Of a stretch of 64,000 nt of DNA, positions 15,466 to 55,633 are shown piece after piece. Under the pieces are notes generated by a model, which made no database searches, was not told the origin of the DNA, and was given only the letters and a program-made list of their open reading frames with translations. The translations under genes and the position numbers were made by a program. Positions within the stretch are counted from its first letter, which is position 1; the number at the start of each line of letters is the position of its first letter. The stretch spans positions 756,321 through 820,320 of the forward strand of contig OZ243930.1 of assembly GCA_965213975.1 (NCBI GenBank), in the 5' to 3' direction. Source of the DNA: Candidatus Spongiisociaceae bacterium (lineage in GTDB: Bacteria; Actinomycetota; Acidimicrobiia; Spongiisociales; Spongiisociaceae).

Positions 15466-15478
15466 CCTCGCCCGCTTG

Positions 15479-18253: not shown

Positions 18254-18304
18254 CGGCAATATTGCAGGCAGAAGCCTGCCCATTGCCAGCCCTCCGAACT
18301 CCCG

Positions 18305-19692: not shown

Positions 19693-19701
19693 GCCAAACA
19701 G

Positions 19702-22915: not shown

Positions 22916-22955
22916 CCGGCCTGGACAGTCTAGGAGAGACGGAGCCGGGTGACGT

Positions 22956-27587: not shown

Positions 27588-28935
27588 TCCTGCTCGCGTG
27601 CATCTCGTGGGAGCGGGAGGGGCAGGGATGGGTCCGCTCGCCAAGCTGCTTGCTCGGATGGGTCATGTGGTTTCGGGATCCGACCTGGTAGCGAGCTCGA
27701 GCCTGGACAGCCTGGGCCGCGACAACGTGGAGACCTGGGTGGGGAGTCGACCATCCCGCATGGAGGAGTGTGCCCTAGTGGTTGCATCCGCCGCGGTACC
27801 TCGGTCCGATCCGGAGCTGGGCGCGGCCCGGTCGGCGGGCGTCGTTACCTGGGATCGTGCGCGGCTGTTGGGTGCCATCACGGCTGCTATCCCGACTCTT
27901 GGTTTTACGGGTACCCATGGTAAGACCACCTCTACCGCACTGGCCGTATCGGCGACCCACGGTCTCGGTCTCGACCCTTCCTATCTGGTCGGCGGTGACC
28001 TAGTCGGGCACGAGGACAATGCCCACCTTGGAACCGATGACTTGTTGCTTCTTGAAGCTGACGAGGCCTACGGCACGTTCGGCCATCTGGCCTTGGCTGG
28101 TCTGGTGGTCACGAACGTCGACATTGATCATCTCGACCATTATGGAACCCCCGAACGCCTCGAAGAGGCCTTCGTCCAGGTGGTGGAGCGGGTGGAGGGG
28201 CCGGTGGTGGTTGGCCTGGATGATCCCGGGGGGGCCAGGCTGGCCGCCCGTACCGGGAAACCCGGCTATGGCATCCATCCGGAAGCCGTTTGGCGGATAG
28301 AGGAGCTCACCCCGGCGGTTGATTTAGTGAGGTTCCGTCTGTCCGGACGTTTCGCTCCAGCCGAGGTGACGATCGGACGGCCCGGCTTACACAACGCACA
28401 GAATGCGACCGGTGTTCTTGCCCTACTGGCGGAAATGGGTCATGACATAGCCGGGGCCATTGACGCTCTCGCCCGTTTCAAGGGTGTACACCGCCGCTTA
28501 GAGCATCGATCAACCGTACGCGGGGTCGCCGTCATCGACAGCTATGCGCACCTCCCGGCGGAGATAGCGGCGGATATCGATGCTCTGAGACCGATGGATA
28601 GGAATAGGTTGTGGGTGGTGTTCCAGCCGCATCTGTACTCGAGAACGCTCGCCTTAGCCGGGGAGTTCGGTGCTGCTCTGGCCAAGGCGGACCGGGTGGT
28701 GGTTACCGACATCTACGGGGCACGCGAGTCGGCGATCGCGGGTGTCACCGGTCGCCTTGTAGCCGATGCCGTAGATGGCTCGGGGGTGGACAGCAGTTAT
28801 GTCCCCGGCCTTGACGAAGCTGAGCGCCTCGTCTCGTCTCAGGCGGAGGAGGGGGATGTGGTACTCATCCTGGGCGCGGGCGATATCTCCACGCTTCCCG
28901 GACGCCTGATCCGAAGCCTGTCAGCCCCACTATGA
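27562..28935 (+). CDS. murC: UDP-N-acetylmuramate--L-alanine ligase
   Basis: VHLVGAGGAGM Rossmann motif. GTHGKTTST P-loop. IDSYAHLP. Confidence 0.9.
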   Translation: MVRMSLPVDPARVHLVGAGGAGMGPLAKLLARMGHVVSGSDLVASSSLDSLGRDNVETWVGSRPSRMEECALVVASAAVPRSDPELGAARSAGVVTWDRARLLGAITAAIPTLGFTGTHGKTTSTALAVSATHGLGLDPSYLVGGDLVGHEDNAHLGTDDLLLLEADEAYGTFGHLALAGLVVTNVDIDHLDHYGTPERLEEAFVQVVERVEGPVVVGLDDPGGARLAARTGKPGYGIHPEAVWRIEELTPAVDLVRFRLSGRFAPAEVTIGRPGLHNAQNATGVLALLAEMGHDIAGAIDALARFKGVHRRLEHRSTVRGVAVIDSYAHLPAEIAADIDALRPMDRNRLWVVFQPHLYSRTLALAGEFGAALAKADRVVVTDIYGARESAIAGVTGRLVADAVDGSGVDSSYVPGLDEAERLVSSQAEEGDVVLILGAGDISTLPGRLIRSLSAPL

Positions 28936-29873
28936 CGACCTGGGCAGAACTCATGGCTGAGGGATCAGTACGCAGTCAGGTAAATCTGGCCCCGATGACC
29001 ACCTACAAGCTGGGCGGCGCGGCGCGATGGTTTCTTGAGGCAACCTCAACCGACACCCTCCGGACAGTGTCTCGGGCCGCCCTTGATCGTGGCCTGGAGA
29101 TCGCGGTGATCGGGCGCGGTAGCAACCTCCTGGTGGCTGATTCTGGCTTTCGGGGACTGGCCATCCGGCTAGGGGCCGCTTTCAAGGCCGTCGAGATCTG
29201 TTCTGCCGAAGGGACGGTGAGCGCGGGTGCGGCGGTAGGCCTCCCGGTACTGGCCCGCCGAGTGGCGGAAGGGGGTTGGTCGGGTCTGGAGTTCTACGTG
29301 GGAATACCAGGAACCGTCGGTGGAGCGGTTCGTATGAACGCCGGGTTCTACGGGGTGGAGACCGTCGACGTGATACGTTCAGCTTCGATCCTCGACCTCC
29401 GGTCGGGCCGTACCGACCATCGGCGGGTGGACCAACTGGGTCTTGCTTATCGTCGCAGCGGGCTGGGGCCTGACGACGTGGTGTTGGCAGCCGAGTTCGG
29501 TCTGAACAAGGGTGACCGGGACCGTATCCTTGCCCTAATGAGGGAGGCGATCCGTTGGCGGCGGGACTATCAGCCCGGCGGGACGCTCAATGCCGGGAGT
29601 GTGTTTCGTAATCCTCCCCAGGACAGCGCTGGTCGTATAATCGACTCGTTGGGCTTGAAGGGATTGCGGCGGGGAGGGGCACACATTTCTACCAAGCATG
29701 CCAACTTCTTCGTGGTTGACGCCGGTGCCACCGCCCAGGATGTACTTACTCTGGTAACCGATGTTCACAAGTTGGTGAAGCGTGCCACCGGGATCGTCCT
29801 GACTCCCGAGATGCGGTTCCTCGGATTTGACCCCGAGGAAGTGGCACCCCTTACCGGAGGCGAGAACTCTTGA
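28932..29873 (+). CDS. murB: UDP-N-acetylenolpyruvoylglucosamine reductase
   Basis: FAD-binding domain with GRGSNLLV. MurB C-terminal domain. Sits between murC and ftsQ. Confidence 0.88.
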   Translation: MTTWAELMAEGSVRSQVNLAPMTTYKLGGAARWFLEATSTDTLRTVSRAALDRGLEIAVIGRGSNLLVADSGFRGLAIRLGAAFKAVEICSAEGTVSAGAAVGLPVLARRVAEGGWSGLEFYVGIPGTVGGAVRMNAGFYGVETVDVIRSASILDLRSGRTDHRRVDQLGLAYRRSGLGPDDVVLAAEFGLNKGDRDRILALMREAIRWRRDYQPGGTLNAGSVFRNPPQDSAGRIIDSLGLKGLRRGGAHISTKHANFFVVDAGATAQDVLTLVTDVHKLVKRATGIVLTPEMRFLGFDPEEVAPLTGGENS

Positions 29874-30625
29874 CCGCCTCGACCTCTGATGAGCAACGCC
29901 GATCGGTCAGAGATAGAAGGGCGCGGAGGTCAGCACAGGTCGTGTTTGTGGCGTCCGTAGTGGGCGGACTGGTTTGGGTGGCTTCATTCTTCGGGGTAGA
30001 ACGGATCGACATAACCGGTGCCAGCCTGGTGCCGGTCGAGCAAATCGTCGCGGAGAGCGGTCTGGTTGTCGGGAGACCCCTCATCACCATCCGCCCCCCG
30101 GCCATAGAGGAAAAACTGACTGGACATCCACGGATCGCCGCCGCCTCGGTGAAGCTGGTCTTCCCCGATCGCGTAAAGGTGACCGTACGGGAGCGGGTCG
30201 ATGCCGCAGTCATTGAGCTTGCCGACAATTGGGCAGTGGTGGCCTACGACGCAGTGGTGGTCGATTACGCCGCCGCTCCTGACGACTCCCTTCCCCTAAT
30301 GAGGATTCCATTAGTGGACCCGGGCCTGGGACAGGCTATAGGTCAACCTGCCGTCTTAGGAGCGTTAGAGTTCTTGGCTGCGCTTCCTGAGGAATTCACC
30401 TTGGATGTGGTGATTTCAGAACGAGACCATCAGCTCTGGGCCTGGGTTGGGAACCGAGCGGCCAAGCTCGGGCCTCCGACGGACCTCGAAAGAAAGGCGC
30501 TGTCTCTGGTGGCGCTGCTCTCATCCAATACTGAGGATGGCCTGATTGACGTCACCGCACCGAACCGGCCCGCGATCAGGCCGTGGGTTACGACTGATCC
30601 AGACGTCGAAGACCTCAAACTATAA
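29870..30625 (+). CDS. ftsQ: Cell division protein FtsQ/DivIB (POTRA domain)
   Basis: N-terminal TM segment, POTRA-like VERIDITGASLVPVEQI, and position upstream of ftsZ. Confidence 0.8.
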   Translation: MTASTSDEQRRSVRDRRARRSAQVVFVASVVGGLVWVASFFGVERIDITGASLVPVEQIVAESGLVVGRPLITIRPPAIEEKLTGHPRIAAASVKLVFPDRVKVTVRERVDAAVIELADNWAVVAYDAVVVDYAAAPDDSLPLMRIPLVDPGLGQAIGQPAVLGALEFLAALPEEFTLDVVISERDHQLWAWVGNRAAKLGPPTDLERKALSLVALLSSNTEDGLIDVTAPNRPAIRPWVTTDPDVEDLKL

Positions 30626-30729
30626 CGTTGAGGATAAACGTGAAGTATAACTAGTAATTTAAGGTATGGGTTCAGGTAACCTATAGCGGTCAGGTTCGAG
30701 TCGGTCTCCGCGATTGGCAGAGTGGAAGG
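30626..30729 (+). promoter_or_regulatory. AT-rich ftsQ-ftsZ intergenic region, likely carrying ftsZ promoter(s)
   Basis: GC content drops sharply here (tataacgttgaggataaacgtgaagtataactagtaatttaaggtatg). TTGAGG, an 18-nt spacer, then TAGTAA resembles a sigma-70/SigA -35/-10 pair. Confidence 0.4.
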
Positions 30730-30741
30730 ATGATTGACCAT

Positions 30742-31809
30742 ATGACGATTTCCAACGAAACCAGTCTCCGCGGGTACGTCGCGGTTATCCGGGTGGTGGG
30801 AGTTGGCGGTGGCGGAATGAACGCCATCAACCGCATGATCCGCACCGGGATAGCCGGGGTGGATTTCATCGCCATCAATACCGATGCGCAGGCGCTCTTG
30901 ATGTCAGAGGCCGACGTCAAGTTGAATATCGGGGCCGAGATCACCAAGGGACTTGGTGCCGGTGCCGACCCGTCAGTAGGTAAAGCCGCCGCCGAGGACG
31001 ACCGCGACGATCTGGAAGACGTCCTGGCCGGATCAGATCTGGTGTTTGTGACCGCGGGGGAAGGTGGCGGCACTGGCACCGGAGCGGCACCGGTCGTGGC
31101 AGCATGTGCGCGCAAGCTGGGTGCCCTCACGGTAGGCGTGGTGACTCGCCCGTTCGGATTCGAGGGGCATCGGAGATCCAAGGTGGCCGAAGAGGGCATA
31201 GCCGATCTGAGGGAACAGGTTGATGCCATGATCGTCATCCCGAACGACAACCTCTTGGCAGAAGCCGATCGTTCGACCACGATGGGCGAGGCGTTCGCCA
31301 TGGCAGATCAGGTATTGACCGACGGAGTAAACGGTATTACCCAGATCATCACTAATCCGGGATTGATCAACGTCGACTTCGCCGATGTAAAAGCGATTCT
31401 CTCCGATTCCGGGACGGCAGTCATGGGCGTCGGCCAGGCTTCCGGCGAGAGCCGGGCCCTGCAGGCGGCTCAGCAGGCGATGGCTAGCCCGCTACTGGAG
31501 ACCTCCATGGAAGGGGCGAGAGGAGTACTGCTCTCGATCACCGGCCCTCCGGATATGACGTTGACGGAGGTAAGCGAGGCCGCCGCCGCGGTTCAGGAAG
31601 GGGCCGACTCAGATGCACAGATCATCTTTGGTGCCTCCCAGGACGACGCGATGGGACAAGAGTTCCGGCTCACCATCATCGCCGCCGGGGTCAGATCACG
31701 TCAATCCGGAGCGGGGGCACGGAATACCGCCAGCCGAGCCGGTGCCTCAGGTAGGGCTCAGCAGGCCTACGACGATCCGTTAGAGATTCCAGACTGGCTG
31801 CAGGAGTAG
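30742..31809 (+). CDS. ftsZ: Cell division GTPase FtsZ
   Basis: Tubulin signature GGGTGTG. Near-identical block structure to actinobacterial FtsZ (IRVVGVGGGGMNAINRM, NTDAQAL, VTRPFGFEG). Alternative start at 30730. Confidence 0.95.
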   Translation: MTISNETSLRGYVAVIRVVGVGGGGMNAINRMIRTGIAGVDFIAINTDAQALLMSEADVKLNIGAEITKGLGAGADPSVGKAAAEDDRDDLEDVLAGSDLVFVTAGEGGGTGTGAAPVVAACARKLGALTVGVVTRPFGFEGHRRSKVAEEGIADLREQVDAMIVIPNDNLLAEADRSTTMGEAFAMADQVLTDGVNGITQIITNPGLINVDFADVKAILSDSGTAVMGVGQASGESRALQAAQQAMASPLLETSMEGARGVLLSITGPPDMTLTEVSEAAAAVQEGADSDAQIIFGASQDDAMGQEFRLTIIAAGVRSRQSGAGARNTASRAGASGRAQQAYDDPLEIPDWLQE

Positions 31810-31821
31810 CTGAACGACCTA

Positions 31822-32463
31822 ATGCTGGACATGCTTTTGCTGCCGCCGGGGTTTCGTGGCGCGGCCTTTACAACTGCCGCAGCCGGTGATGTCCGCTCAG
31901 GAAATCGGGGAGAGGTCGCAGACTTGCTGGGTATCACCGAGGCGTGGTCCATGCCATCCCGCCAGGTTCATGGATCGACGGTGATAGCCGTTAGCTCGGC
32001 CGGTCCGGCCGGAGAGGGTGACGCGTTGGCCACGGAGACCACCGGGTTGCCTATAGCCGTCACGACCGCCGACTGCGCGAGCGTGGTGCTGGAGACCGAC
32101 GCCGCGGTGGCGGTTGCGCATGCCGGATGGAGGGGTGTGGTAGCGGGGGTGGTGAGGGCCGCGGCTCGGGCCGTGGAGAGCCTCGGATCGTCACCCGGAC
32201 CGGTACGGCGCGCGGCCAGCGGTCCGTCCATAGGCCCTTGTTGCTTCGAGGTAGGTGCCGACGTGGCCGCATTATTCAACCACCGCCATGTCAAGTCCAT
32301 CGGCGGTAGGACCACGGTAGATCTGTCGGGTGCCGTCAGGGATCAAGTGCCGGATGCCGAGTGGTGGTCGGCACCTGTTTGCACCCGATGCGACGAGGGG
32401 TATTTCTCGTTCCGCGCCAACCGGACCACGGCTCGCATGGCCGCCATCGGATGGCTTCCGTGA
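31822..32463 (+). CDS. pgeF: YfiH/PgeF family (DUF152) laccase-domain protein
   Basis: LLPPGFRGAAFTT N-terminus. His/Cys metal motifs (VAHAGWRG, GPCCFEVG). Conserved position after ftsZ. Confidence 0.75.
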   Translation: MLDMLLLPPGFRGAAFTTAAAGDVRSGNRGEVADLLGITEAWSMPSRQVHGSTVIAVSSAGPAGEGDALATETTGLPIAVTTADCASVVLETDAAVAVAHAGWRGVVAGVVRAAARAVESLGSSPGPVRRAASGPSIGPCCFEVGADVAALFNHRHVKSIGGRTTVDLSGAVRDQVPDAEWWSAPVCTRCDEGYFSFRANRTTARMAAIGWLP

Positions 32464-33125
32464 CCGTTGCCGACCGTCTCAGGATGGTGACGGAGCGGGT
32501 ACGGGATGCAGCCCGTCGCTCGGGTAGGGACCCGGCGTTGATCAAAGTCGTCGCCATCGGGAAGGGACAACCTGCCGCCGCGATCGAAGAGGCGCTTGAG
32601 TGCGGACATCGTGTCTTCGGGGAGAACCGGGCCCAGGAACTCGTTACCAAGGTCGACCTCCTCCCCGCCGACGTGGAGTGGCACTTCGTCGGAGCGCTCC
32701 AGACCAACAAGGCCCGGTTGGTGCGTCCCCGGGTCTCTCTTCTTCATTCCATGGACCGAGACCGCCTGGCCAGGGTATGGCGGAAGGGGTTGCGGGCGGG
32801 ACCTTCGACCCTGATGCAGGTCAACATCGGGCGAGAGCCTCAGAAGTCCGGAGTCTCTCCTGAACTCGTGCTGGATACCTTTGAGCGGTGGGAAGCAGAT
32901 GGACTCTCCCTCGCCGGGTTGATGGCGATACCTCCCCAGGGTTCCGTACCGGAGGATTCTCGGCCCTTCTTTGCGCGAATGCGGAAGCTGAGGGATGAGA
33001 TCTCTGCCCGAGTAGGGCGTCCTTTGGCGCTTAGTATGGGCATGACGGACGATTTTGAGGTTGCTGTCGAGGAAGGATCAACGATCGTGCGAGTCGGACG
33101 GGCTATCTTTGGCCCAAGGAACTGA
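32451..33125 (+). CDS. YggS/YlmE family pyridoxal-phosphate homeostasis protein
   Basis: Overlaps the pgeF 3-prime end. FGENRAQEL and HFVGALQTNKAR motifs of the alanine-racemase-like PLP barrel. Confidence 0.85.
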   Translation: MASVTVADRLRMVTERVRDAARRSGRDPALIKVVAIGKGQPAAAIEEALECGHRVFGENRAQELVTKVDLLPADVEWHFVGALQTNKARLVRPRVSLLHSMDRDRLARVWRKGLRAGPSTLMQVNIGREPQKSGVSPELVLDTFERWEADGLSLAGLMAIPPQGSVPEDSRPFFARMRKLRDEISARVGRPLALSMGMTDDFEVAVEEGSTIVRVGRAIFGPRN

Positions 33126-33132
33126 TACGGAA

Positions 33133-33681
33133 ATGAGCACCATGAACAGAATTCTCACCTGGATGGGTCTCGTGGACGAGGGCGAGCCTGATCGGGAAAT
33201 GGGCTACGGCACCGGCACGCCGGATCGCAGGCCGTCACCGCGAGGGAATTTCCAGATTGTGGATGACCAGGTTGCGGTACAGGAGGGTAGAAACCCGAGG
33301 GTGGCTGAACCGGTCCCGCCCTACGTTCGACCAGCGGTAGTGCCGGTGAGCGGGGACTCCGGGGTGATACTCCGCCGCCAGGATCAGACCATCCAGCCAG
33401 CCGGTTACACCGAGATTCTGGAAGCGCGGACCTTCGACGATGTTCGCCGGGTGGCGGATACCCTCAGAGAGCAGGTCCCGGTGGTGGTGGTTCTCAAGAA
33501 CCTTGACCCGCCTGGCGTTCGGCGCTTGGTGGACTTTCTGTGCGGTCTGGTCTACGCGGTGGATGGAACTCTCCAGAAGTCGGCGGCGGGTGTGCTGCTG
33601 GTTCGACCGTCCGGGGTCTCGGTAGCACGCCAGGAGTTGCGCCGACTGGCCTCGCTCGGACTGTACGACTTCGACGCCTGA
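33133..33681 (+). CDS. sepF: Cell division protein SepF
   Basis: C-terminal DUF552 core (VVVVLKNLDPPGVRRLVDFLCGLVYAVDGTLQKSAAGVLLV). Conserved position after yggS. Confidence 0.85.
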   Translation: MSTMNRILTWMGLVDEGEPDREMGYGTGTPDRRPSPRGNFQIVDDQVAVQEGRNPRVAEPVPPYVRPAVVPVSGDSGVILRRQDQTIQPAGYTEILEARTFDDVRRVADTLREQVPVVVVLKNLDPPGVRRLVDFLCGLVYAVDGTLQKSAAGVLLVRPSGVSVARQELRRLASLGLYDFDA

Positions 33682-33688
33682 GCCTACG

Positions 33689-33943
33689 TTGGTTCGACTC
33701 GTATGCAATCTGGCCCAGCTATACATGGTGGCTGTTATAGCCCGGTCCATCCTCAGTTGGTTGGAGGTGCCGGGTGAGCATCCGGTGGGCCGTGCGGTGG
33801 CGTCGCTGTCGAGGATCGTGGACCCGCCCCTTCGCCCACTGCGCAAGAGATTACCGCCTATCCCTATCGGCGGGGTGAGCCTTGATCTCTCGCCGATTGT
33901 CATGGTTGCGGCGATCGTGATCGTTACCGGGTTTATCTGCTAG
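33689..33943 (+). CDS. YggT/YlmG family membrane protein
   Basis: 84 aa, two TM helices. Position between sepF and divIVA. Confidence 0.75.
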   Translation: MVRLVCNLAQLYMVAVIARSILSWLEVPGEHPVGRAVASLSRIVDPPLRPLRKRLPPIPIGGVSLDLSPIVMVAAIVIVTGFIC

Positions 33944-34327
33944 GTGGTGCAGGTGCGGGTGACGGCGGATGAGGTTCGGGAGATCAAGTTCTCGGTGGCC
34001 CTGCGCGGCTACGCGCCTGACGAAGTGGATAGCTTCCTTGACGTGGTAGTCGACACCCTTTCCGAGTACGAGGCTTACCGAAGCAGGTCCCGGAAGAGGC
34101 TCGGCGAGTTGGAGTCGACCATCAACCGGATCGTGACCGGGCAATCGGCCGACGATCGCGGCGACGCCGACGAGACAGTGGTGGGCGTTCGCAGCATGGT
34201 TGAGGAAGCCGCGCGAGTGTCGGAGCAGATGGTCGAGCAGGCGCTTGAAGTGGGGGAGCACCTCCTCGAAGAACTCCGGAAGCTGCTAGCTGAGGCCGAC
34301 AAACCTGGTCAGATGCCCCGAGATTGA
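33944..34327 (+). CDS. DivIVA-domain protein (short, 127 aa)
   Basis: N-terminal DivIVA motif TADEVREIKFSVALRGYAPDEVDSFLD followed by a coiled coil. Much shorter than Wag31-type DivIVA. Confidence 0.75.
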   Translation: MVQVRVTADEVREIKFSVALRGYAPDEVDSFLDVVVDTLSEYEAYRSRSRKRLGELESTINRIVTGQSADDRGDADETVVGVRSMVEEAARVSEQMVEQALEVGEHLLEELRKLLAEADKPGQMPRD

Positions 34328-34376: not shown

Positions 34377-36200
34377 CTACTCGCCGTCCTTGGCTTTACC
34401 GAGGGCTCGACGGGCTTGATCATCCCTCCAAGAATGAGGTGCCGGAGGGAGCACGAATCCTTCTTCACCGTTGAGGAGGAGGAGCAGGTCGGCGGTGTGT
34501 TCAGCTCCGGCGGCATTAGGTTGAACCCAATACCCGTCCGGATCCTGGTGAACCAGGAATGCCTGCTCTGACTCGGCCTCAAAACGGTCCTTGTCGATGA
34601 ACAGGCGGGGTTTGATCACGGCGGGATCCCCGACCTCAGGGCAGAACACCATGCAGTTGCCACACTCGTTACACAGCTCGGTGAGGACCAGATATTGCTG
34701 AAGGCCGGTAGCGTCGAGTTCATCGGGGGTGGGTATACGGAAGAAGGCGTCGTTGGGGCATACCGTCACGCAGAAGTTGCAGGCAACACATCCCCACATC
34801 TTCAGCTCGTTATCGACCGACCGGGGCAGTTTGGAATTGCCTGCCAAGGTGTATTTTCGGTTGGTGAGAGGATTGTGGAGGGTGGCAACATAGGCGGCCA
34901 CCGGCCCTACTCCGCCAGCCAGTCCCGCTTTGTGGTCTTGCCACCCCGCCAGGGATACCGACCCGGCCTGCTTCATGGCATTCCAGAGTCCCTTGACCAT
35001 CGGAGCAAGGCGGCCGTAACCGCCGGGCTTGAGAAGATCCGAGCAGATGGTGATCGGGGCGAGCCCGAGCGCGGCCGCCTCCGGCAGGTTCTCCTTGGTT
35101 ATCCCCGCTGAGAAGGAAACCTGTACCGGACCGTCCTGCCCCCCGACTCTCAGCATGCCGGGTAAGGCATCGTGCAGCTCCCCGAGCAGGGTGGTGGATA
35201 CCACATGCAGCGGCGGCCCCGACAGGTACATGGTTTCGTCTGGCATGAAACCCTTGGTGTTCTCCACGACCAGGGTGTTGGTCAGCTTGATACCGAATCG
35301 CCGGCCGTGCTCGACGGCGAACCGGTTCAGCTCACCGATCAGGTCCAGCGCTCTCGGAAACTGCAGGTCGTTGTCGAAGTCCTCCCGGCGTAGCACCGTT
35401 TGCCGATAACCGAGGGTGTCGCCAACGATCTGTCCCACCCGCTCAAACCCCAGCAGGGTGGGGTTTAGCTTCACGATCACATCCAATCCGTGTCGGGTGA
35501 TGAGATGCTTGGTGATCGCTTCGATCTCGTCCGGGGGGCACCCGTGAAAGGTCGAGAGGGTTACGGTGTCGGCGATCCGGGTGGGGAAGTCCATGTCCTG
35601 GAAGGGTTCGAAGCCGCCTACGATCTGGGGTCGGAGCCGTTCTATCTCGTCGCTCGCGTCCATCATCGAGTCGATGAACCAAGCTACCTGGTCTGTGGAG
35701 ATCCCGGCTAGGTCGTAGCCAACCGATAGGTCGAAAATGTATGGCCCGGTGTCCTCACCCAGGTGCGGAGTCACCTCATCCCACCGCCGCAACATCTCAA
35801 CGATCATCGACGCCTTTACGTACTCCTCAAGGGATTGAGGGATCTTTAGTTCCTGGCTCCATTCGATGTTGTACCCGATGGTCTCCATGTCGATGCAGGG
35901 CCGGTTTATCTCCAGTTCATCGAGCACCTGGACCGTCTTGAGCTCGATCAGGCGAGACCCGGCCAGCCAGGACAGCACGATGTTCTGGGCCATCTGGCTG
36001 TGCGGGCCGGCGGCGGGGCCCACCGGAGTGGCGGCTCGCCGCCCTAGGAAGTCGATGGAAATGTCGGGTCCCTTGGAGATGTTGAGAAAGCGGGCCGTCG
36101 GCAGGTCGAAGATTCGGTTCCTTGTGGTCCACTCGTGCTCAATACGCGCCAGCAGATCGGCCAGCCCGAATGGGGTAAGCGGTACGTGGTCGCCGTTCAC
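34377..36200 (-). CDS. DHOD/DPD-like TIM-barrel oxidoreductase with two C-terminal 4Fe-4S ferredoxin motifs (PreA/YgfK-like)
   Basis: DHOD-family signatures GRRAATPVGPAAGP and ELKTV...EINRP...GYN. C-terminal CVACNFCVTVCP and CNECGNCMVFCP. Start trimmed to GTG 36200, which has an AAAGGAAA RBS, lying just after the SsnA-like stop. The track ORF runs to 36413. Confidence 0.65.
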   Translation of the reverse strand: MNGDHVPLTPFGLADLLARIEHEWTTRNRIFDLPTARFLNISKGPDISIDFLGRRAATPVGPAAGPHSQMAQNIVLSWLAGSRLIELKTVQVLDELEINRPCIDMETIGYNIEWSQELKIPQSLEEYVKASMIVEMLRRWDEVTPHLGEDTGPYIFDLSVGYDLAGISTDQVAWFIDSMMDASDEIERLRPQIVGGFEPFQDMDFPTRIADTVTLSTFHGCPPDEIEAITKHLITRHGLDVIVKLNPTLLGFERVGQIVGDTLGYRQTVLRREDFDNDLQFPRALDLIGELNRFAVEHGRRFGIKLTNTLVVENTKGFMPDETMYLSGPPLHVVSTTLLGELHDALPGMLRVGGQDGPVQVSFSAGITKENLPEAAALGLAPITICSDLLKPGGYGRLAPMVKGLWNAMKQAGSVSLAGWQDHKAGLAGGVGPVAAYVATLHNPLTNRKYTLAGNSKLPRSVDNELKMWGCVACNFCVTVCPNDAFFRIPTPDELDATGLQQYLVLTELCNECGNCMVFCPEVGDPAVIKPRLFIDKDRFEAESEQAFLVHQDPDGYWVQPNAAGAEHTADLLLLLNGEEGFVLPPAPHSWRDDQARRALGKAKDGE

Positions 36201-36243
36201 CGGTTTCCTTTCGACTCGGGCCAGATGGGTGGCGGGTTTGGTT

Positions 36244-37308
36244 TCATAGCCGGGCGTGCAGTCGGGCGGCCTGTTCCCTTGCCTTCGCCCGGATCTCGTT
36301 CGGATCCACCCTGGTTGGTTGACCGTTCTCGAAGACGGTTTCGCCGCCCACGTCAATGCGGAGCGGTCGGACCCCCGGAGTAAACGCCAGGTGCCATGGA
36401 TCCATCGGTTCATAGCTCCAGATGACTCGGTCTTCTCGGCACTCGGGCATGAGATCCCAGCCGTTCTCCAGCCAGGACCAGACGGTATCGGGGCCAGCGG
36501 TGATGTCGACCGACCGGTGGAGGGCGTACGCCAGGCGAAAGGTCTCGATCATGTTGGCACCGATACCGTCGGTGCCCAACACCACGGGGTTGTCGAAACG
36601 AGCCGGGTTGGCGTAGCCCACCGAGTTATTCAGGTTCGAGTGGGGTTGGTGCAGGACGGTACCGCGAAGCCCATGGTGGTCGGGCAGGTAGACGCAGTGG
36701 GCTAGGAGCCAGGCATCCGACGTCAACCCGGCCAGCTTGGTTTGGCAGTCTTTGTCCTCGGGCCCCTCGGCGACATGGACATGGACACCTACGTCAAGGT
36801 CCTCCGCCAGGCTGGCGGCTTCTTCCAGCGTGGATCGCTCACAGGTGAAGGCGGCGTGGATGCCCACCATGCCCTTTCCCCCTTCGCTGAGGAAGCGGCG
36901 ATTCTCCTCGAGCCCGCGTCTGGCCCCGTCAATACCGTGGCGGTCGGTGATTCCGTAGCTGGGGCGAACCCGAACTCCCACCGCCTGGCAGGCTTCCCGG
37001 ATTAAGGAGAGGGACCCCTCGATCGCGTTCGGGGACTCATGGTGGTCGACTATCCCGGTAGTACCCGACTCGAGCGCCTCCAACGCCCCCAGCATCGCCG
37101 ACCAACGGATCATTTCGGCGTCTAGAGCCAGGTCGAGACGCCACCAGATTTGTTCGAGTATCCCCAGAAAGCTGGTCGGCGTCCGCGGCGGGGCGGGCAT
37201 ACCGCGCGCCAGGGTCGAGTAGAGATGGTGGTGGCCGCACACCATCCCGGGGGTGGAGTTCATGCTTCGGGCCGGTGATGGACCGTCATGGGAAGATGGT
37301 TGCGCCAC
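36244..37308 (-). CDS. SsnA-like amidohydrolase (chlorohydrolase/aminohydrolase family), N-terminally short
   Basis: Long collinear similarity to E. coli SsnA: PGMVCGHHHLYSTLARGM...IWWRLDLALD...GTTGIVDHHESP. The GTG start overlaps the xdhD-like 3-prime end by 49 nt. Only about 20 aa precede the HxH motif, versus about 57 aa in SsnA. Confidence 0.75.
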   Translation of the reverse strand: MAQPSSHDGPSPARSMNSTPGMVCGHHHLYSTLARGMPAPPRTPTSFLGILEQIWWRLDLALDAEMIRWSAMLGALEALESGTTGIVDHHESPNAIEGSLSLIREACQAVGVRVRPSYGITDRHGIDGARRGLEENRRFLSEGGKGMVGIHAAFTCERSTLEEAASLAEDLDVGVHVHVAEGPEDKDCQTKLAGLTSDAWLLAHCVYLPDHHGLRGTVLHQPHSNLNNSVGYANPARFDNPVVLGTDGIGANMIETFRLAYALHRSVDITAGPDTVWSWLENGWDLMPECREDRVIWSYEPMDPWHLAFTPGVRPLRIDVGGETVFENGQPTRVDPNEIRAKAREQAARLHARL

Positions 37309-39842
37309 TCCCCGTCGAGGTCATGCATGGCGGCAGCCACTGCTCCGGCGGTGGGAACCAAGCCGATCTCACCGACGCCCTTGATGCCGTACGGTGCCAA
37401 GGGCTGGGGGACCTCGACGAGGATCACCTCTATCTTGGGCATGTCCTTGGGCCGGATTATGCCAAGACTACGGAGGGTCATGTTGGTCGGCCTACCTTCA
37501 TGGTCGGCGGGGAACTCCTCGGTGAGTGCGTAGCCCAGACCCATGTGGACCGATCCCTCGATCTGGCCTTCGCACAGGTTCGGGTTGATGGCCCGCCCGA
37601 CATCGTGGGCTGCCACCACCTCCTCGATTTGGCCGGAGGCACGATCGATGATCACTAGCTGAGCGGCGTAGCCGAACGCCGAGTGGATTACCGGGTTATC
37701 TAGGCCTTCGCTAAGAGAGTTGGTCCAGTCGACCCGATACTCACCGTAGTAGTCGACCTCGGGAAGGCGACCACCCGCATCCGCAGCTTGACAAGCCGAT
37801 TTCACCGCTCCCGCCCCCATGAGGGTGCCCCGAGATCCGGTGGTTTGTCCGGCACCGAGTTCCCGGCTGGTGTCGACTACGACCCTTATCTTGGCGGGGT
37901 CGATGCCCAGTTCTTCGGCGGCGACCTGCTGGGCGACGGTGTGGATTCCCTGGCCCATCTCGGTCCAGCAGTGCCGTACCTCCACTGTTCCGTCCCTCCC
38001 GAACCGGACCACCGCACCGGCGATCTCTTTGAACCCGTTGCCGAGCCCGCTGTTCTTCAGGCCCAGCCCGACGCCTACCGCCTTGCCGGCGGCACGAGCG
38101 GCGTCGTAGTGGGGCTTGACCGCCTCCAGCGCCTGGAGTGCCCCCCGGCATCCATCATCCATAATCTGGCCTGGCCCCCACACCACGCCGGGTTCCACCA
38201 CGTTGCGGCGTCGCATTTCCCATCCGGATATCCCCACCGCATGGGCTAGGCGATCAAGTACCCCTTCCATTGCGAATTGAGCCTGGTTGGCCCCGAATCC
38301 GCGGAAGGCACCGCATACCGGGTTGTTGGTGCGGGCCGCCACGGCCTCGACGTCGATATTGGGAACGACGTAGGGACCGGACGCGTGGCCAGCAGCCCGT
38401 TCCAGCACCTTCATTCCCACCGAGGCGTAGGGGCCAGAGTCGCCCAGCATGCGTGCCTTGAGGGCGGTCAGCTTGCCGTTGTTGTCGCAGCCAGCCCAAA
38501 GGTCGATCCGGATCGGGTGACGTTTGGCGTGGATGCGCAGCGACTCCTCCCTGGAAAGGGTGCACTTCACAGGGCGGCCGAGGAGATGGGCTGCCAGCGC
38601 GGTTTGGGCCTGGTTGGCCATGTCCTCCTTGCCCCCGAAGGCCCCTCCGTTGGAAACCAGCTCCACGGTGATAAGAGAGGGGTCGAGGTCAAGGACCGCC
38701 GCCATCTGGTCACGGTCATCCCAAACACCTTGGCCCCCCGAATAGACCATCAACCGACCGTTCCCGGCGGGAACTGCCAACGTGGATTCCGGTTCCAGGA
38801 AGGCATGTTCGACGCGCTGGGTCACGAATCGCTCATGTACCTGGTGAGCAGATGTTTGATAGGCCGACTCGAAGTCGCCGCGGGCGTACTCCGACGTGGA
38901 GAGGATGTTGCCGCTCAACCCCCACACGGCATCATCTTCTGCCGCGACCGCCTCGGCCGGATCGGTAAAGGGGGTTAGGACGACGTATTCCACATCGATG
39001 GCCTCAGCTGCGGCCCGAGCCGTCATTCGATCCTCGGCCACCACCATGGCCAAGACATCGCCGTAGTAGGAGGTACGTCCACCCTCGGGGATGAACACGG
39101 GCCAATCCTTGTGGATGAGGCCCACCCGCAGGCTGCCGGGGACGTCGGACGCAGTGAGCACCGCTGACACGCCCGGCATGGAAAGGGCCCGGTCGGTGTC
39201 GATGCGGATGATGTCGGCTCGAGCATGGTCGGTCAGTCGCAAAGCTCCGTGGAGCATGCCCGCAATACGGATGTCATCCACATAGTTGCGGTCGCCGAGC
39301 GCCAAGTCGGTGCTCTCATACTTGATGCCGGACTTGCCGACTCCCGAAGCCTGCTCGAGGAGCGGGGTTTCTCCTTTGGCCAGGACGTCGATGGCGTCGA
39401 AGATCTTGGTGTATCCGGTGCACCGGCAGAGGTGAGCTCCTAGCCGACCGGCCGTTACCTTGCGGGTGAGGCCAGACCCCTTCTGATCGATCAGCGCCTT
39501 GGCCCTAACCAGGATCCCGGGGGTGCAGAACCCGCACTGGAGCGCTCCGGTAGCGGCGAACGCGGAGGCGAGCCGGTTTCGTTCCCCCGGCTCGAAACCC
39601 TCGAGGGTCACTACCTCCTTGCCGCGCACCTTCTCAAGGGCAAGGACGCAAGCCACGAAGGCCCGACCGTTGACTAGGACTGTGCAACAGCCACACTGTC
39701 CGGAAGGAGAGCAACCGTCCTTTACCGAGGTGATATCGAGTTCTTCTCGAAGGGCGGCGAGCAGGTGAGGGTGATCGGCGCTCACGGCTACGGGCTCACC
39801 GTTGAGGGTGAACCCGACGGTGCGCTCTGCTAGCAGGGTCAT
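37260..39842 (-). CDS. Molybdopterin-dependent hydroxylase with fused N-terminal 2Fe-2S domains (XdhD/aldehyde-oxidase-like). No FAD domain.
   Basis: N-terminal plant-type and second 2Fe-2S motifs (CSPSGQCGCCTV...QCGFCTPG...CRCTGY). Large MoCo-binding aldehyde oxidase/xanthine dehydrogenase a/b-hammerhead and MPT domains. Confidence 0.85.
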   Translation of the reverse strand: MTLLAERTVGFTLNGEPVAVSADHPHLLAALREELDITSVKDGCSPSGQCGCCTVLVNGRAFVACVLALEKVRGKEVVTLEGFEPGERNRLASAFAATGALQCGFCTPGILVRAKALIDQKGSGLTRKVTAGRLGAHLCRCTGYTKIFDAIDVLAKGETPLLEQASGVGKSGIKYESTDLALGDRNYVDDIRIAGMLHGALRLTDHARADIIRIDTDRALSMPGVSAVLTASDVPGSLRVGLIHKDWPVFIPEGGRTSYYGDVLAMVVAEDRMTARAAAEAIDVEYVVLTPFTDPAEAVAAEDDAVWGLSGNILSTSEYARGDFESAYQTSAHQVHERFVTQRVEHAFLEPESTLAVPAGNGRLMVYSGGQGVWDDRDQMAAVLDLDPSLITVELVSNGGAFGGKEDMANQAQTALAAHLLGRPVKCTLSREESLRIHAKRHPIRIDLWAGCDNNGKLTALKARMLGDSGPYASVGMKVLERAAGHASGPYVVPNIDVEAVAARTNNPVCGAFRGFGANQAQFAMEGVLDRLAHAVGISGWEMRRRNVVEPGVVWGPGQIMDDGCRGALQALEAVKPHYDAARAAGKAVGVGLGLKNSGLGNGFKEIAGAVVRFGRDGTVEVRHCWTEMGQGIHTVAQQVAAEELGIDPAKIRVVVDTSRELGAGQTTGSRGTLMGAGAVKSACQAADAGGRLPEVDYYGEYRVDWTNSLSEGLDNPVIHSAFGYAAQLVIIDRASGQIEEVVAAHDVGRAINPNLCEGQIEGSVHMGLGYALTEEFPADHEGRPTNMTLRSLGIIRPKDMPKIEVILVEVPQPLAPYGIKGVGEIGLVPTAGAVAAAMHDLDGEWRNHLPMTVHHRPEA

Positions 39843-39879: not shown

Positions 39880-39935
39880 CCACCAAATTTTACATTTTGT
39901 CAAATCCTAGCAAGTGTGTCCGGCTCGTAGGAGCT
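39880..39935. promoter_or_regulatory. AT-rich divergent control region between the xdhD-like operon and the MTH1187-family gene
   Basis: ccaccaaattttacattttgtcaaatcctagcaag. On the minus strand this reads TTGCTA, 15 nt, TAAAAT (a -35/-10-like pair) and also contains TTGACA. Confidence 0.35.
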
Positions 39936-40016: not shown

Positions 40017-40247
40017 GTGCGAGCCAACGTAGATTTCACAGTCGAACCATTTGCCGAGGGTAAGCCGGGTCCTCATGTTCAGGCGGCCATTAGGGCACTG
40101 GCTGTCTTGGACCCCGATGTCGGACCTTTCGGCACCACCGTGGAGGGAGACCTTGACGAGACCATGCAGGTCGTCCGGGACGGTGTGGCGGCGGCGGTGT
40201 CGGCGGGTGCCACCCGCGTAGTGGTGAGCATCACGGTCACGCCGTGA
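40017..40247 (+). CDS. MTH1187/YkoF-family (DUF77, thiamine-binding-like) protein, C-terminally short
   Basis: VDFTVEPFAEG...PFGTTVEGDLDETMQVVRDGVAAAVSAGATRVVVSITV matches the MTH1187 family pattern. 76 aa, versus about 100 aa typical for the family. Confidence 0.55.
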   Translation: MRANVDFTVEPFAEGKPGPHVQAAIRALAVLDPDVGPFGTTVEGDLDETMQVVRDGVAAAVSAGATRVVVSITVTP

Positions 40248-40612
40248 GTGCCGAGCATCCGTTGCTGGAGGCGGTGCGGCCCCTAGTAGCGGCGGTTGGA
40301 GCCGAGATCATCGAGCCGGGCGGGGCCGACGATGGCTGTGTTCCGCTGGAATGGGAAGGCCGTGTCGTCGGGGCGGTTCGGCTTCACACCCTTCACGATG
40401 CGTTGGATCACCTAGTGGGGACGGTCGAGGCTGAGCTCGGTGGAAAGTTGGCCGATCTGGGACGAGTACAAAAGCAGGTGGCGGTGCGCTTGCTGGACGA
40501 ACGGGGTGCCTTTCGGCTGCGCAAGTCCATCAATGAGGTCGCTGATCTAATGGGGGTAAGCCGCATCACCATCTACAACTATCTGAACACCATCAGGGAC
40601 GCACAGGCCTGA
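40244..40612 (+). CDS. Small regulatory protein with C-terminal Fis-type HTH
   Basis: Overlaps the previous stop by 4 nt. C-terminal KSINEVADLMGVSRITIYNYLNTI resembles HTH_8 (Fis/NtrC-type). Confidence 0.5.
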   Translation: MSAEHPLLEAVRPLVAAVGAEIIEPGGADDGCVPLEWEGRVVGAVRLHTLHDALDHLVGTVEAELGGKLADLGRVQKQVAVRLLDERGAFRLRKSINEVADLMGVSRITIYNYLNTIRDAQA

Positions 40613-40935
40613 TGACCCCCCGCATCCTCTCCGCCCTCGTGTCGCTGGGCATGGCGCTGGCGGTGCTCTCGTGTGGGGGATCCGATTTACCCGAAGACGC
40701 CACCGGCGAGGAGGTATACGTGCGGATGTGCGCCCGCTGCCACGGTGCCGACCTATCCGGCGGTGCCGGTGTGGCGCTGGCAGGTGAAGGGGCCGAGTCG
40801 GCCGATAAGCCGGAGACATACCTGGTGCAGTCGATCACCTACGGGATCGGGAGGATGCCGTCCTTTCGCGGCACTCTCACCGATGAACAGATCTCGAGGG
40901 TGACACGCTACATAATGGAACAACAGGGTCGCTGA
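40612..40935 (+). CDS. Class I c-type cytochrome lipoprotein
   Basis: The ATG shares one nucleotide with the preceding TGA. Signal peptide with lipobox LAVLSC. Haem-binding CARCH. Distal Met in GRMPSF. Confidence 0.7.
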   Translation: MTPRILSALVSLGMALAVLSCGGSDLPEDATGEEVYVRMCARCHGADLSGGAGVALAGEGAESADKPETYLVQSITYGIGRMPSFRGTLTDEQISRVTRYIMEQQGR

Positions 40936-44228: not shown

Positions 44229-46262
44229 ATGGTACGGGTAGCCGTCGATATTGGGGGAACCTTCACGGACGCGGTGCTCATCGACGACAACGGCACCACC
44301 CGGACCGCCAAGGCCCTGACCACTCCCTCCCGCCTGCATGAGGGGGTCTTGGCCGCGATCGATCGACTGGGTGTCGACTGGAGGCGATTGGACTCCATAA
44401 CCAACGGGACCACGGCGGGCTTGAATGCGTTTCTGGAACGGCGGGGTGCCGAGGTGGCCTTGGTCACAACCCGAGGCTTCCGCGATGTGTACGAGTTGGG
44501 TCGTGCCAACCGGCCGGACATGTACAACGTGCGCTACCGGCCGCCCACCCCCCTCATCCCGCGACGTTCTATCTTTGAGGTGGACGAGCGAATGGCACCC
44601 GACGGTTCGGTGGTCCGACCGGTTCCGGGCACCTCGGTTCGAGAGCTGGCCCTACGACTGGCTGGTGATTTTCGGGCGGTGGCTATCTGCCTGCTCCACT
44701 CCTACGCCAACCCCACCCATGAGCAGGAAATCGCCGACGTAATCCGCTCCATCGACCCGACGATCTCGATCGTCTGCTCATCCGACATCGCGCCGGAATG
44801 GCGGGAGTATGAGAGAACTAGCACCACGGCCATCGCCGCCTACGTGGCCCCAATCGTTGAGGGTTACCTGAGCGAGATCGAACAAAGAACGGAGGAACGG
44901 GGGATGCGGGGTGCCTTTCGGGTCATGCAGTCCAACGGGGGAGTGATGTCCGCCGCCTCAGCCCGCCGCAAGCCCATCCAAACCCTCTTCTCAGGTCCAG
45001 TCGGCGGCACGATGGCCTGCCTGTCTCTCTCCGCGGACCTAGCCGAGGAGATCTCGGCCGACCGGCTTATCTGTGTGGATATGGGGGGCACGTCGTTCGA
45101 TATGAGCCTGGTAGTGGACGGCCGAGCCGACGTTGAGCTGGAGTCGGAACTTCAGCGCCATCCCGTCCTAGCCCCCTCGGTCGCCATTCACACCATCGGG
45201 GCCGGTGGCGGCAGCGTCGGCCATCTCGCGGGCGGCGGGTTGAGAGTCGGCCCACGATCGGCCGGGGCCTCGCCTGGACCTGCCTGCTATGGAGCGGGTG
45301 GGACCGAGCCGACGATTACCGATGCCAATCTCTTCCTGGGAAGGCTGCCCAGCACTACCCGCCTCGCCGGTGGAATGACCATTGACCGTGCTGCTGCGGA
45401 GGGCGCCCTTCTCTCGGTGGCTGAGCGGGTGGGTCTTGACGTAGGCGAGCTGGCGAGCGGGATGATCGCGGTGGCCGACTCGACCATGGCCAACGCCATA
45501 CGAGAGATTACGGTCATGCGAGGAATCGATCCGCGGGACTTCGTCCTGGTGGCGTTCGGTGGTGCCGGGCCGCTCCACGCTGTCTCGTTGGCAGAGGAGT
45601 TGGACTTGGGTGCCGTTGTGGTTCCGGTGAATCCCGGTGTCCTCTCCGCCTACGGCATGCTTTCGACGGATACCCGCCATGACGCCGTCCAGAGTTTCTA
45701 CGTGCGCGTGTCGGATCTGACCGAGGAAGCACTTGAAGCGGCCCTCGCCGAGCTTGAGGAGCGGGCGCGGCTCATGGTGAAGGAAGACGGGTTCGACGAC
45801 CAGGCAATATCGCTGGAGCCCTCCGCCGATCTCCGCTACTCGGGGCAGGAATACACGGTAACCCTTCCTCTCGATACCACCCGGGGCTTGGCGAGCCTCA
45901 TAGCCCAGGTTTCCGATCAGTTCGCTGAGGCCCACGAAGTCCGCTACGGGCACAGCAATCCCGGCGAGGCAGTTGAGTTCGTCAACCTCCGCATGGCAGC
46001 CTTCGGGGCGATGACCAAACCCCGGCCCGCGCCGCTGCCCACCGGAGCAATGCCGAAGTTCGTGGACCAAGAACGCACGATGTTCACTAATGGATGGCGG
46101 GACACCCCGGTCTACCATCGTTCTACGCTTCCCCCCGGTGGCGAGTTGGCCGGACCGTCAATCGTCTTGGAGGATGCATGTACGACCCTGATCCCACCCG
46201 GTTGGTCGGCGACAGTATCCCGCCACGGGCATCTCCTGATCACCCGGCGTGATCAGATATGA
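44229..46262 (+). CDS. hyuA: Hydantoinase A / N-methylhydantoinase A / 5-oxoprolinase subunit (HyuA family)
   Basis: N-terminal VAVDIGGTFTDAVLIDD actin-like ATPase motif. Full-length Hydantoinase_A architecture of 677 aa. Confidence 0.85.
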   Translation: MVRVAVDIGGTFTDAVLIDDNGTTRTAKALTTPSRLHEGVLAAIDRLGVDWRRLDSITNGTTAGLNAFLERRGAEVALVTTRGFRDVYELGRANRPDMYNVRYRPPTPLIPRRSIFEVDERMAPDGSVVRPVPGTSVRELALRLAGDFRAVAICLLHSYANPTHEQEIADVIRSIDPTISIVCSSDIAPEWREYERTSTTAIAAYVAPIVEGYLSEIEQRTEERGMRGAFRVMQSNGGVMSAASARRKPIQTLFSGPVGGTMACLSLSADLAEEISADRLICVDMGGTSFDMSLVVDGRADVELESELQRHPVLAPSVAIHTIGAGGGSVGHLAGGGLRVGPRSAGASPGPACYGAGGTEPTITDANLFLGRLPSTTRLAGGMTIDRAAAEGALLSVAERVGLDVGELASGMIAVADSTMANAIREITVMRGIDPRDFVLVAFGGAGPLHAVSLAEELDLGAVVVPVNPGVLSAYGMLSTDTRHDAVQSFYVRVSDLTEEALEAALAELEERARLMVKEDGFDDQAISLEPSADLRYSGQEYTVTLPLDTTRGLASLIAQVSDQFAEAHEVRYGHSNPGEAVEFVNLRMAAFGAMTKPRPAPLPTGAMPKFVDQERTMFTNGWRDTPVYHRSTLPPGGELAGPSIVLEDACTTLIPPGWSATVSRHGHLLITRRDQI

Positions 46263-46353
46263 GCAATGGCTCTCCGTCCGAGGGTGGTGTTATAGGTTTC
46301 TCTCTCGTGGCGGGTAGGTGCCAGCCCCGAGGCGAGCAATAAAGCGAGGTGCA

Positions 46354-47094: not shown

Positions 47095-47169
47095 CGGTTC
47101 CTTCATTGCCGGTCTGGTTGTACACCGGGCCGGTCTCTGCACAATAAATCCTGACGAAAAGGAGCGAAA

Positions 47170-48852: not shown

Positions 48853-48901
48853 TCTGGAGAGGAGCAAGACCAGGTTGTAAAGGAACCGACGAGGGAAGGA
48901 C

Positions 48902-55588: not shown

Positions 55589-55633
55589 CGGGTCCCTCGG
55601 CCGAAACCAGTCGGTAACTACACTGTCCGCTCT

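Follow-up and report, generated by a model that had tools for sequence, protein, structure and literature searches.

It was not until 2025 that the reductive breakdown of urate was elucidated, and then in gut anaerobes alone. Urate is reduced to 2,8-dioxopurine, either by XdhD-YgfM (E. coli) or by a fused, FAD-less and selenium-dependent enzyme, XdhAC/DOPDH (C. sporogenes); YgfK (DOPOR), which employs NAD(P)H, FAD, FMN and Fe-S clusters, dearomatises 2,8-dioxopurine, SsnA then opens the ring of the reduced product, and HyuA, YgeW/YqeA or UacY, YgeY and YgeX carry the breakdown on to pyruvate and ammonia (PMC12507026; bioRxiv 10.1101/2025.04.24.650524). According to the same authors the donor varies, being NADH in E. 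coli, F420 in Chloroflexota and presumably ferredoxin in case of XdhD and UacX of C. difficile (PMC12507026; bioRxiv 10.1101/2025.04.24.650524). Here we describe an operon of three genes on the minus strand (34377-39842) of a 64-kb window, i.e. the whole stretch of "Candidatus Spongiisociaceae" DNA that was analysed. The genes encode a molybdenum hydroxylase (XDHac), a short SsnA-like amidohydrolase (SsnAs) and a short YgfK paralogue (YgfKs). With a probability of roughly 0.6 we consider the operon to encode the first steps of the reductive urate (2,8-dioxopurine) pathway, its upper module, in an Acidimicrobiia-type variant without the NAD(P)H/FAD entry modules; a re-engineered version of the pathway would then be widespread in the Acidimicrobiia. 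In the literature searched no description was found of an Acidimicrobiia version or of a YgfK without the NADPH module.

A preliminary description of this DNA had compared the locus with ygfK-ssnA-xdhD of E. coli, and this relationship stands, since the same three enzyme families are adjacent to one another, as in the E. coli and C. sporogenes pathway. As in Clostridia, the FAD-less molybdenum enzyme is fused to its own 2Fe-2S domains, and the context seen in related loci is also shared: guanine deaminase, conventional xanthine dehydrogenase (XDH), ureido cleavage and diaminopropionate ammonia-lyase. The differences are substantial, however. YgfK is found here without its NADPH/FAD module and SsnA without its N-terminal segment; neither YgfM (FAD) nor the GltD-like module of YgfK, through which NADPH and FAD enter in E. 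coli, is present in the redox enzymes of this operon. In most related loci carbon-nitrogen hydrolases (CN-hydrolases) and an M20 carbamoylase replace YgeW/YqeA/YgeY, HyuA is almost always missing, and YqeB/YqeC are unlinked. The hosts are Acidimicrobiia and not gut anaerobes, and in place of the sigma-54 regulator YgeV of E. coli an HTH_22 protein and an operator of its own are associated with the operon.

The statement that the substrate of the E. coli system is unknown has become outdated, since the papers of 2025 give the order urate, 2,8-dioxopurine, reduction and ring opening (PMC12507026; bioRxiv 10.1101/2025.04.24.650524). A purine substrate, which had been among the earlier suggestions, is judged likely on the basis of pathway homology and purine-gene context. 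The suggested "oxidation and ring opening", on the other hand, probably has the wrong direction, because the characterised pathway is reductive.

The three enzymes of the operon

The three open reading frames (ORFs) were found on the minus strand at 34377-39842, where the preliminary description had placed them. The operon is real, with corrected gene starts. The genes had been reported as three overlapping minus-strand genes; their number and strand were correct, but the second and the third do not overlap, being separated by a 43-nt gap once GTG 36200 is taken as the start of YgfKs. The domain architectures, homologies, conservation, gene context and common motif given below were observed directly.

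XDHac (37260-39842, minus strand) is an 860-aa molybdenum hydroxylase with two 2Fe-2S domains fused at its N-terminus and no FAD domain. The Pfam domains Fer2_2, Ald_Xan_dh_C (a/b-hammerhead), MoCoBD_1 and MoCoBD_2 were identified, and every Cys motif for two 2Fe-2S clusters is kept. The best NCBIfam model was TIGR03311 ("selenium-dependent XDH"), with 819.6 bits for residues 11-852 against model positions 3-841 of 848, which is 11 bits under the curated cutoff of 830.45; the score on the aldehyde oxidoreductase model was 417 bits. In case of the XdhD model, TIGR03313, the score was 200.6 bits against a cutoff of 1101.9, and the identity to E. coli XdhD was 24% (BLASTP). Thus the size and the fused 2Fe-2S domains noted earlier were confirmed, while the supposed XdhD likeness was not, and XDHac is, by these profile matches, an enzyme of the fused XdhAC/TIGR03311 type. 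Its size and layout match those of C. sporogenes XdhAC/DOPDH, the molybdenum domains of which are residues 307-839. Orthologues in two of the related loci considered below are 84% (L001) and 73% (L002) identical. The fused XdhA and XdhC protein of E. faecalis, EF_2570, shares a gene cluster with EF_2581 (YgfK) and EF_2582 (SsnA) (PMC2276186). Since EF_2570 is a member of the TIGR03311 family, this cluster links the TIGR03311 architecture to the urate pathway.

The closest solved structure was the FAD-less D. gigas aldehyde oxidoreductase (MOP; PDB 1VLB/1SIJ), which gave a full-length match and has the same architecture, with two [2Fe-2S] clusters, molybdenum domains and no FAD domain. It differs from XDHac in the active site, the purine-type Glu/Arg residues belonging to XDHac. 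Active-site motifs GGQ, GGKE, FRGFG and GVGEIG were found in XDHac, and we take these to be the equivalents of Gln767, Glu802, Arg880 and Glu1261 (bovine and R. capsulatus XDH). The E. coli XdhD gene is likewise a molybdenum hydroxylase gene beside ygfK and ssnA; its product, however, partners the FAD subunit YgfM and has Gln/Gln at the Glu802 and Arg880 positions, where XDHac carries Glu/Arg. When E. coli K-12 xdhD (L003, 25317-28187) was aligned with XDHac, cysteines were absent at three checked 2Fe-2S ligand motifs (GFAGSDA, QSGYNDP and SRDAGW), and the N-terminal "Fe-S binding" domain of E. coli XdhD may therefore be degenerate.

SsnAs (36244-37263, minus strand) is a 339-aa SsnA-like amidohydrolase which lacks the N-terminal beta-sandwich segment of about 55 residues. 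The amidohydrolase had been described as N-terminally short, starting about 20 aa before the HxH motif and overlapping the 3' end of the XDHac gene by 49 nt. The short N-terminus was confirmed, and the overlap of 49 nt applies to the ORF (36244-37308) only. Translation almost certainly begins at ATG 37263, which forms an ATGA overlap with the TGA of XDHac, as read directly in the sequence. The resulting protein of 339 aa is exactly as long as the deposited P0121, and 120 homologue clusters (at least 72% identical) have 339-345 aa. With this start the HxH motif begins 10 residues from the N-terminus, and not about 20.

The best profile matches of SsnAs were the SsnA models NF005540 (238.6 bits) and TIGR03314 (220.6 bits), the next family reaching 80 bits; the protein thus groups with SsnA and not with the guanine or cytosine deaminases, as had been proposed. 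Both scores are below the cutoffs of these models (444 and 455 bits, respectively). The alignment to the models begins at model position 57-58, and with 339 aa, compared with 442 aa for E. coli SsnA, SsnAs does not have the full-length architecture. The identity to residues 56-438 of E. coli SsnA was 34%. The HxH and HxHxxE motifs, His205 and Asp232 are invariant in the SsnAs homologues and align with E. coli SsnA. The predicted structure, with a mean predicted local distance difference test score (pLDDT) of 71, matches the amidohydrolase barrels of the TRZ/ATZ and deaminase group. From these alignments SsnAs is a conserved SsnA-type enzyme without the N-terminal segment.

YgfKs (34377-36200, minus strand) consists of a TIM barrel resembling dihydroorotate dehydrogenase (DHOD), which probably binds FMN, and of a C-terminal domain for two [4Fe-4S] clusters; a GltD-like NADPH/FAD module is lacking. 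The ORF (34377-36413) would encode 678 aa, and GTG 36200 within it is preceded by the ribosome-binding site GAAAGGAAA. From this GTG the protein has 607 aa, equal to the deposited protein P0001. A match to the YgfK model TIGR03315 was obtained at positions 5-398 with E = 7e-126, and the score of 420.9 bits is below the curated cutoff of 835.3. In BLASTP comparison YgfKs aligned to residues 5-405 and 898-978 of E. coli YgfK, with 41% identity in both regions, and no part of it aligned to residues 410-895; nor was a Pyr_redox match found in YgfKs by Pfam. The skipped region corresponds to the Fer4_20 and Pyr_redox_2 (GltD-like, NADPH/FAD) module of the long family members.

The two CxxCxxCxxxCP motifs of YgfKs are invariant, which confirmed the C-terminal 2x[4Fe-4S] domain. 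Invariant motifs were also seen in the barrel (GPAAGP, ELKTV, LSTFHGCPP, VKLNP and KLTNT), and in our reading these resemble the flavin- and substrate-binding loops of DHOD and dihydropyrimidine dehydrogenase (DPD). The AlphaFold model (pLDDT 68.7) was good for the barrel and poor for the Fe-S domain. A Foldseek search with the N-terminal approx. 450 residues returned solely the FMN barrels of DHOD and DPD (E about 1e-8, probability 1.0), and there was no match to PF01180 (DHO_dh) in Pfam. The earlier assignment as a 608-aa protein with a DHOD/DPD-like barrel and two 4Fe-4S motifs is therefore correct in fold and cysteine motifs, the length being 607 aa. However, it had been regarded as a DHOD-like Fe-S partner standing in YgfK's stead, and this cannot be maintained, since the protein itself is a YgfK homologue, which, judged from the alignments, is without the central NADPH/FAD module. 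The same domain logic, a DHOD-like FMN barrel with a C-terminal 2x[4Fe-4S] domain, no FAD domain and reductant supplied through a separate partner, is known from C. difficile UacX, clostridial PydAc and E. coli PreA. YgfKs differs from these in belonging by sequence to the YgfK family (TIGR03315) and not to PF01180. The label "putative selenate reductase" carried by YgfKs homologues in some sources was discounted, because E. coli YgfK neither needs selenate nor is stimulated by it.

Current labels of the three proteins are "4Fe-4S dicluster protein", "amidohydrolase" and "putative selenate reductase". Since the standard family cutoffs miss all three of them, family-based surveys undercount the pathway.

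Conservation, genomic context and a common candidate operator

Short YgfK proteins form more than 120 clusters at 62-84% identity, every one of 580-612 aa, and are present in at least 590 species-level genomes, mostly of Acidimicrobiia. The metagenome-assembled genomes among these include ones titled Ilumatobacter, Microthrix and "Ca. Spongiisociaceae"; a few of the 590 genomes belong to Chloroflexota, Krumholzibacteriia or Latescibacterota. The lengths of the 150 nearest YgfK-family representatives at 50% identity fell into several ranges (32 of 560-670 aa, 35 of 671-800 aa and 68 above 800 aa). In eight representatives that were checked, the short and middle forms had the di-cluster domain only and the long form had Pyr_redox_2, and about half of the closest representatives are without the Pyr_redox module. 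These data bear on the question whether short SsnA and short YgfK could be truncated pseudogenes, the decayed remnant of an E. coli-like cluster. Both proteins are indeed shorter than those of E. coli and score under the family cutoffs. But the short lengths are kept in more than 100 clusters each, and in case of YgfK in all those species; the catalytic and cluster-binding residues are invariant, the frames are intact with coupled starts, and the lack of the Pyr_redox module is common in the family. A pseudogene or truncation artefact was therefore rejected as effectively refuted by the conservation data, and decay of the operon is extremely improbable.

The genomic context was analysed in 80 related loci, of which 32 were well covered, with at least 6 kb on either side of the YgfKs gene. 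Within this subset XDHac, SsnAs and a CN-hydrolase were each neighbours of YgfKs in 24 loci, followed by HTH_22 (19), pyridoxal phosphate (PLP)-dependent enzymes (15), a PF01910-like protein (14), a Bmp/PnrA binding protein (13) and a conventional FAD-containing XDH (10). A cytochrome c was found in two of the 32, which are the closest relatives of the window, and YqeB/YqeC and HyuA in one each. The collinear order XDHac-SsnAs-YgfKs occurred in 25 of 55 related loci and the alternative order YgfKs-CN313-XDHac in 14 of 53. Clustering of the neighbouring ORFs added nucleoside ABC permeases with their ATPase and an M20 amidase (17 loci); the latter is a hydantoinase/carbamoylase-family amidase (NCBIfam, 395.8 bits compared with a cutoff of 204). 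In about 10 loci the PLP enzyme beside YgfKs is diaminopropionate ammonia-lyase (NCBIfam, 337.9 bits, cutoff 276). The CN-hydrolases are closest to N-carbamoylputrescine amidase (NCBIfam), and guanine deaminase and a PnrA/Bmp nucleoside ABC transporter were further neighbours. As far as these family assignments go, the neighbours fit a purine breakdown to diaminopropionate.

When the regions upstream of XDHac in the window and in the loci L001, L004 and L005, the closest relatives, were aligned, a conserved TTTGACAAAATGTAAA stood out in otherwise diverged intergenic DNA. In the window this is the imperfect palindrome TTGACAAAATGTAAA (minus-strand reading) at 39889-39903, a candidate operator, which lies 47 nt before the ATG of XDHac and within the divergent promoter region. 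The palindrome TTKACAAANTGTAAA is common to the three genes and to purine-related genes of the related loci. A search for the AT-rich imperfect palindrome TT[G/T]ACA-N3-TGTAAA with up to 2 mismatches gave 48 matches in 33 of 84 sequences (1.32 Mb), namely in 32 related loci and in the window. All copies lie directly upstream of XDHac, SsnAs, YgfKs, CN-hydrolases, Bmp/PnrA, GuaD or the HTH_22/PF01910 pair. In the window it occurs once, as an exact copy; other examples are L005 (6088 and 6106) and L045 (16788 and 20468). Generic inverted-repeat detection in the intergenic region had yielded weak pairs only, and the operator surfaced only by the cross-locus alignment. Since one palindrome stands upstream of all these genes, it ties the three enzymes to purine uptake, deamination and ureido cleavage as one regulon. 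The palindrome is thus a candidate operator that would define a purine-catabolic regulon of Acidimicrobiia, and offers a direct handle for defining the regulon and its inducer.

On the other side of the candidate operator a translationally coupled trio of genes (40017-40935, plus strand) is transcribed divergently. The first gene (40017-40247, plus strand) encodes a 76-aa PF01910-like protein with a ligand-binding fold of the MTH1187/YkoF type, which was 62% identical (tblastn) to the product of an L001 gene carrying PF01910. Its stop codon overlaps the start of the second gene (GTGA), which encodes a 122-aa HTH_22 (PF13309) protein (40244-40612, plus strand; Pfam E = 1.6e-17). The HTH_22 gene often adjoins the operator motif in related loci and is a candidate for the regulator of the operon; the PF01910-like and HTH_22 proteins may form a two-part sensor/regulator. 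The third gene (40612-40935, plus strand) encodes a mono-haem cytochrome c (Pfam Cytochrome_CBB3) with an LSCG lipobox, a CARCH haem site and a lipoprotein signal peptide.

The operator and the context also bear on the possibility that the substrate is not urate or 2,8-dioxopurine but a different N-heterocycle, such as a pyrimidine, nicotinate or another oxopurine, e.g. 8-oxoguanine-derived products; in essence this was the broad proposal of the preliminary description. The three proteins show modest identity to the characterised enzymes and score under the family cutoffs, YgfKs is a paralogue apart from long YgfK, with 38% identity in one genome, and HyuA is nearly absent, all of which would be understandable if another ring were attacked. 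However, operator and context link the three genes to a nucleoside transporter, to guanine deaminase and conventional XDH, and to carbamoyl amidases and diaminopropionate ammonia-lyase; in the published pathway just these products would be expected to arise from the purine C4-C5-C6 unit. Genes of pyrimidine or nicotinate pathways were not seen in the context of the related loci. We therefore regard a different heterocycle as clearly unlikely.

Electron supply and the proposed reactions

FAD subunits, GltD-like modules and selenium markers were sought in the 64-kb window by tblastn at E<=1; a Pfam survey was also made. Neither a CoxM/XdhB/YgfM-type FAD subunit nor a GltD-like module was found in the window by either means, so that the earlier statement on the missing FAD subunit can be extended to the whole window. 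By tblastn, yqeB, yqeC, selD and mocA were also absent from it. In a YqeB search the best 120 of 8000 matches included no protein from the 2,425,642-bp contig that carries the window. Among the 80 related loci YqeB/YqeC occurred within 10 kb in one only, L080, which is the sole locus with selenium-cofactor marker genes nearby; there (13530-19442) the neighbours of short YgfK are a YgfM-like FAD subunit, an XdhD-like molybdenum subunit, a YqeB split into two ORFs, and YqeC.

With the nicotinamide and FAD entry modules gone from both redox enzymes, the electrons would have to enter via exposed Fe-S clusters. Unbiased clustering of all neighbouring ORFs in the related loci revealed no conserved ferredoxin or reductase gene, and no PreT-like partner gene was seen near YgfKs. 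The cytochrome c encoded at 40612-40935 was considered as electron partner and rejected, because it carries a lipoprotein signal peptide, and hence is exported, and because of its presence in so few of the well-covered loci; it is probably not the redox partner of the three enzymes.

The substrates, the reaction directions, the electron route and the identity of the regulator are what we infer from the comparison with the described pathway, as follows. XDHac, as an enzyme of XdhAC/DOPDH type, would strip the C6 oxygen from urate to give 2,8-dioxopurine. The DHOD-like flavin site of YgfKs, fed through the two [4Fe-4S] clusters of the same protein, would reduce the pyrimidine ring and so dearomatise it, and SsnAs would hydrolyse the reduced ring open. 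The source of the electrons could be a ferredoxin- or flavodoxin-type carrier whose gene lies elsewhere, or XDHac and YgfKs could exchange electrons by direct contact. Expression would be controlled from TTGACAAAATGTAAA, probably by the divergent HTH_22 protein and possibly with participation of the PF01910-like protein. The scheme is supported by homology to three characterised enzymes, with 41% identity in case of YgfKs, 34% together with the catalytic residues in case of SsnAs, and a full-length match to TIGR03311 in case of XDHac.

Several observations weigh against this scheme. The substrate and the direction are taken from homologues with 24-41% identity, and all three proteins are under the NCBIfam cutoffs. 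The genes of the downstream pathway, hyuA, ygeW/uacY, ygeY and ygeX, are missing from the window, and just one of the 80 related loci had a HyuA-type hydantoinase, which the second ring opening requires. A gene for the electron donor was not found near the three genes by the clustering of neighbouring ORFs. Most of the hosts are presumably aerobes, yet the known pathway has been described in anaerobes. Finally, three loci (L030, L032 and L065) carry YgfKs beside XDHac and also a long YgfK beside SsnAs. In L032 (416-11478) YgfKs directly follows XDHac and is followed by a YgeX-like gene, while SsnAs and then long YgfK are divergent; the long YgfK is an intact 1266-aa ORF, 45% identical to E. 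coli YgfK and 38% to YgfKs. Since the short and the long form of L032 are only 38% identical, they are paralogues and may differ in role. Genomes with both forms suggest that the role of short YgfK may be distinct from that of canonical YgfK, and the job of YgfKs in the operon may differ accordingly.

The last point is of importance for another interpretation, in which XDHac and YgfKs form one complex. The molybdenum site would hydroxylate a purine, and the electrons would run over the two [2Fe-2S] and the two [4Fe-4S] clusters to the flavin site, where the same or the next intermediate would be reduced. The net result would be hydration and ring activation without an external redox cofactor, possibly coupled to the neighbouring conventional XDH, since the conversion of hypoxanthine and water to dihydro-2,8-dioxopurine is redox-neutral overall. 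Such a route would agree with the lack of NAD(P)H/FAD modules in both enzymes, with the failure to find a conserved donor gene nearby, with the tight linkage and partial translational coupling of the genes, and with the arrangement in L032, where canonical long YgfK pairs with SsnAs. In addition, XDHac retains the Glu/Arg/Glu residues, unlike E. coli XdhD, and these are typical of true xanthine dehydrogenases, as judged from their roles in the bovine and R. capsulatus XDH. On the other hand, no fusion of XDHac and YgfKs was seen among the 150 closest representatives (maximum 1223 aa), the gene order is variable, with a gene between YgfKs and XDHac in the alternative arrangement (14 of 53 loci), and the characterised homologues of both enzymes act reductively with separate donors. 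That XDHac and short YgfK are a self-contained redox machine, in which the 2Fe-2S and 4Fe-4S clusters join the molybdenum site directly to the flavin site for electron flow in either direction, and with a role of short YgfK distinct from the canonical one, therefore seems to us rather unlikely. If it were true, largely aerobic Actinomycetota would need neither NAD(P)H nor oxygen nor uricase to open the purine ring, and would possess a redox-neutral and cofactor-economical purine catabolism that has not been described before. The reductive urate module, with electrons delivered to the exposed clusters, remains the interpretation that we favour.

Other genes of the window

The Rfam scan of the window revealed no riboswitch and no other RNA, and the scan for consensus promoters and terminators gave nothing useful. 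A 444-aa ORF on the minus strand (12235-13569) is coding-like by its G+C content at third codon positions (GC3 0.74) and has no Pfam match.

A second catabolic operon is found at 44229-56782 on the plus strand. It encodes hydantoinase A, an Asp/Glu/hydantoin racemase, an Opp-type ABC transporter (binding protein, two permeases and two ATPases) and hydantoinase B, as well as a 402-aa amidohydrolase and a creatinase/M24 peptidase, and resembles a hydantoin or creatinine-type utilisation cluster. Its hydantoinase A/B was considered as the second ring-opening step of purine breakdown. This was not supported, the operon being absent from all related loci, including the closest one (L004), and having no copy of the operator.

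The opposite flank of the three genes is occupied by a cell-division and cell-wall cluster on the plus strand (18305-34327), with rsmH, ftsI, murE, murD, ftsW, murG, murC, murB, ftsQ, ftsZ, a gene of the PF02578 family, sepF and DivIVA. This cluster is convergent with the short YgfK gene and ends 50 nt from its stop codon. In L001, L004 and L005 genes of a PLP enzyme and a CN-hydrolase are present on this side, and the genome of the window is thus arranged differently here.

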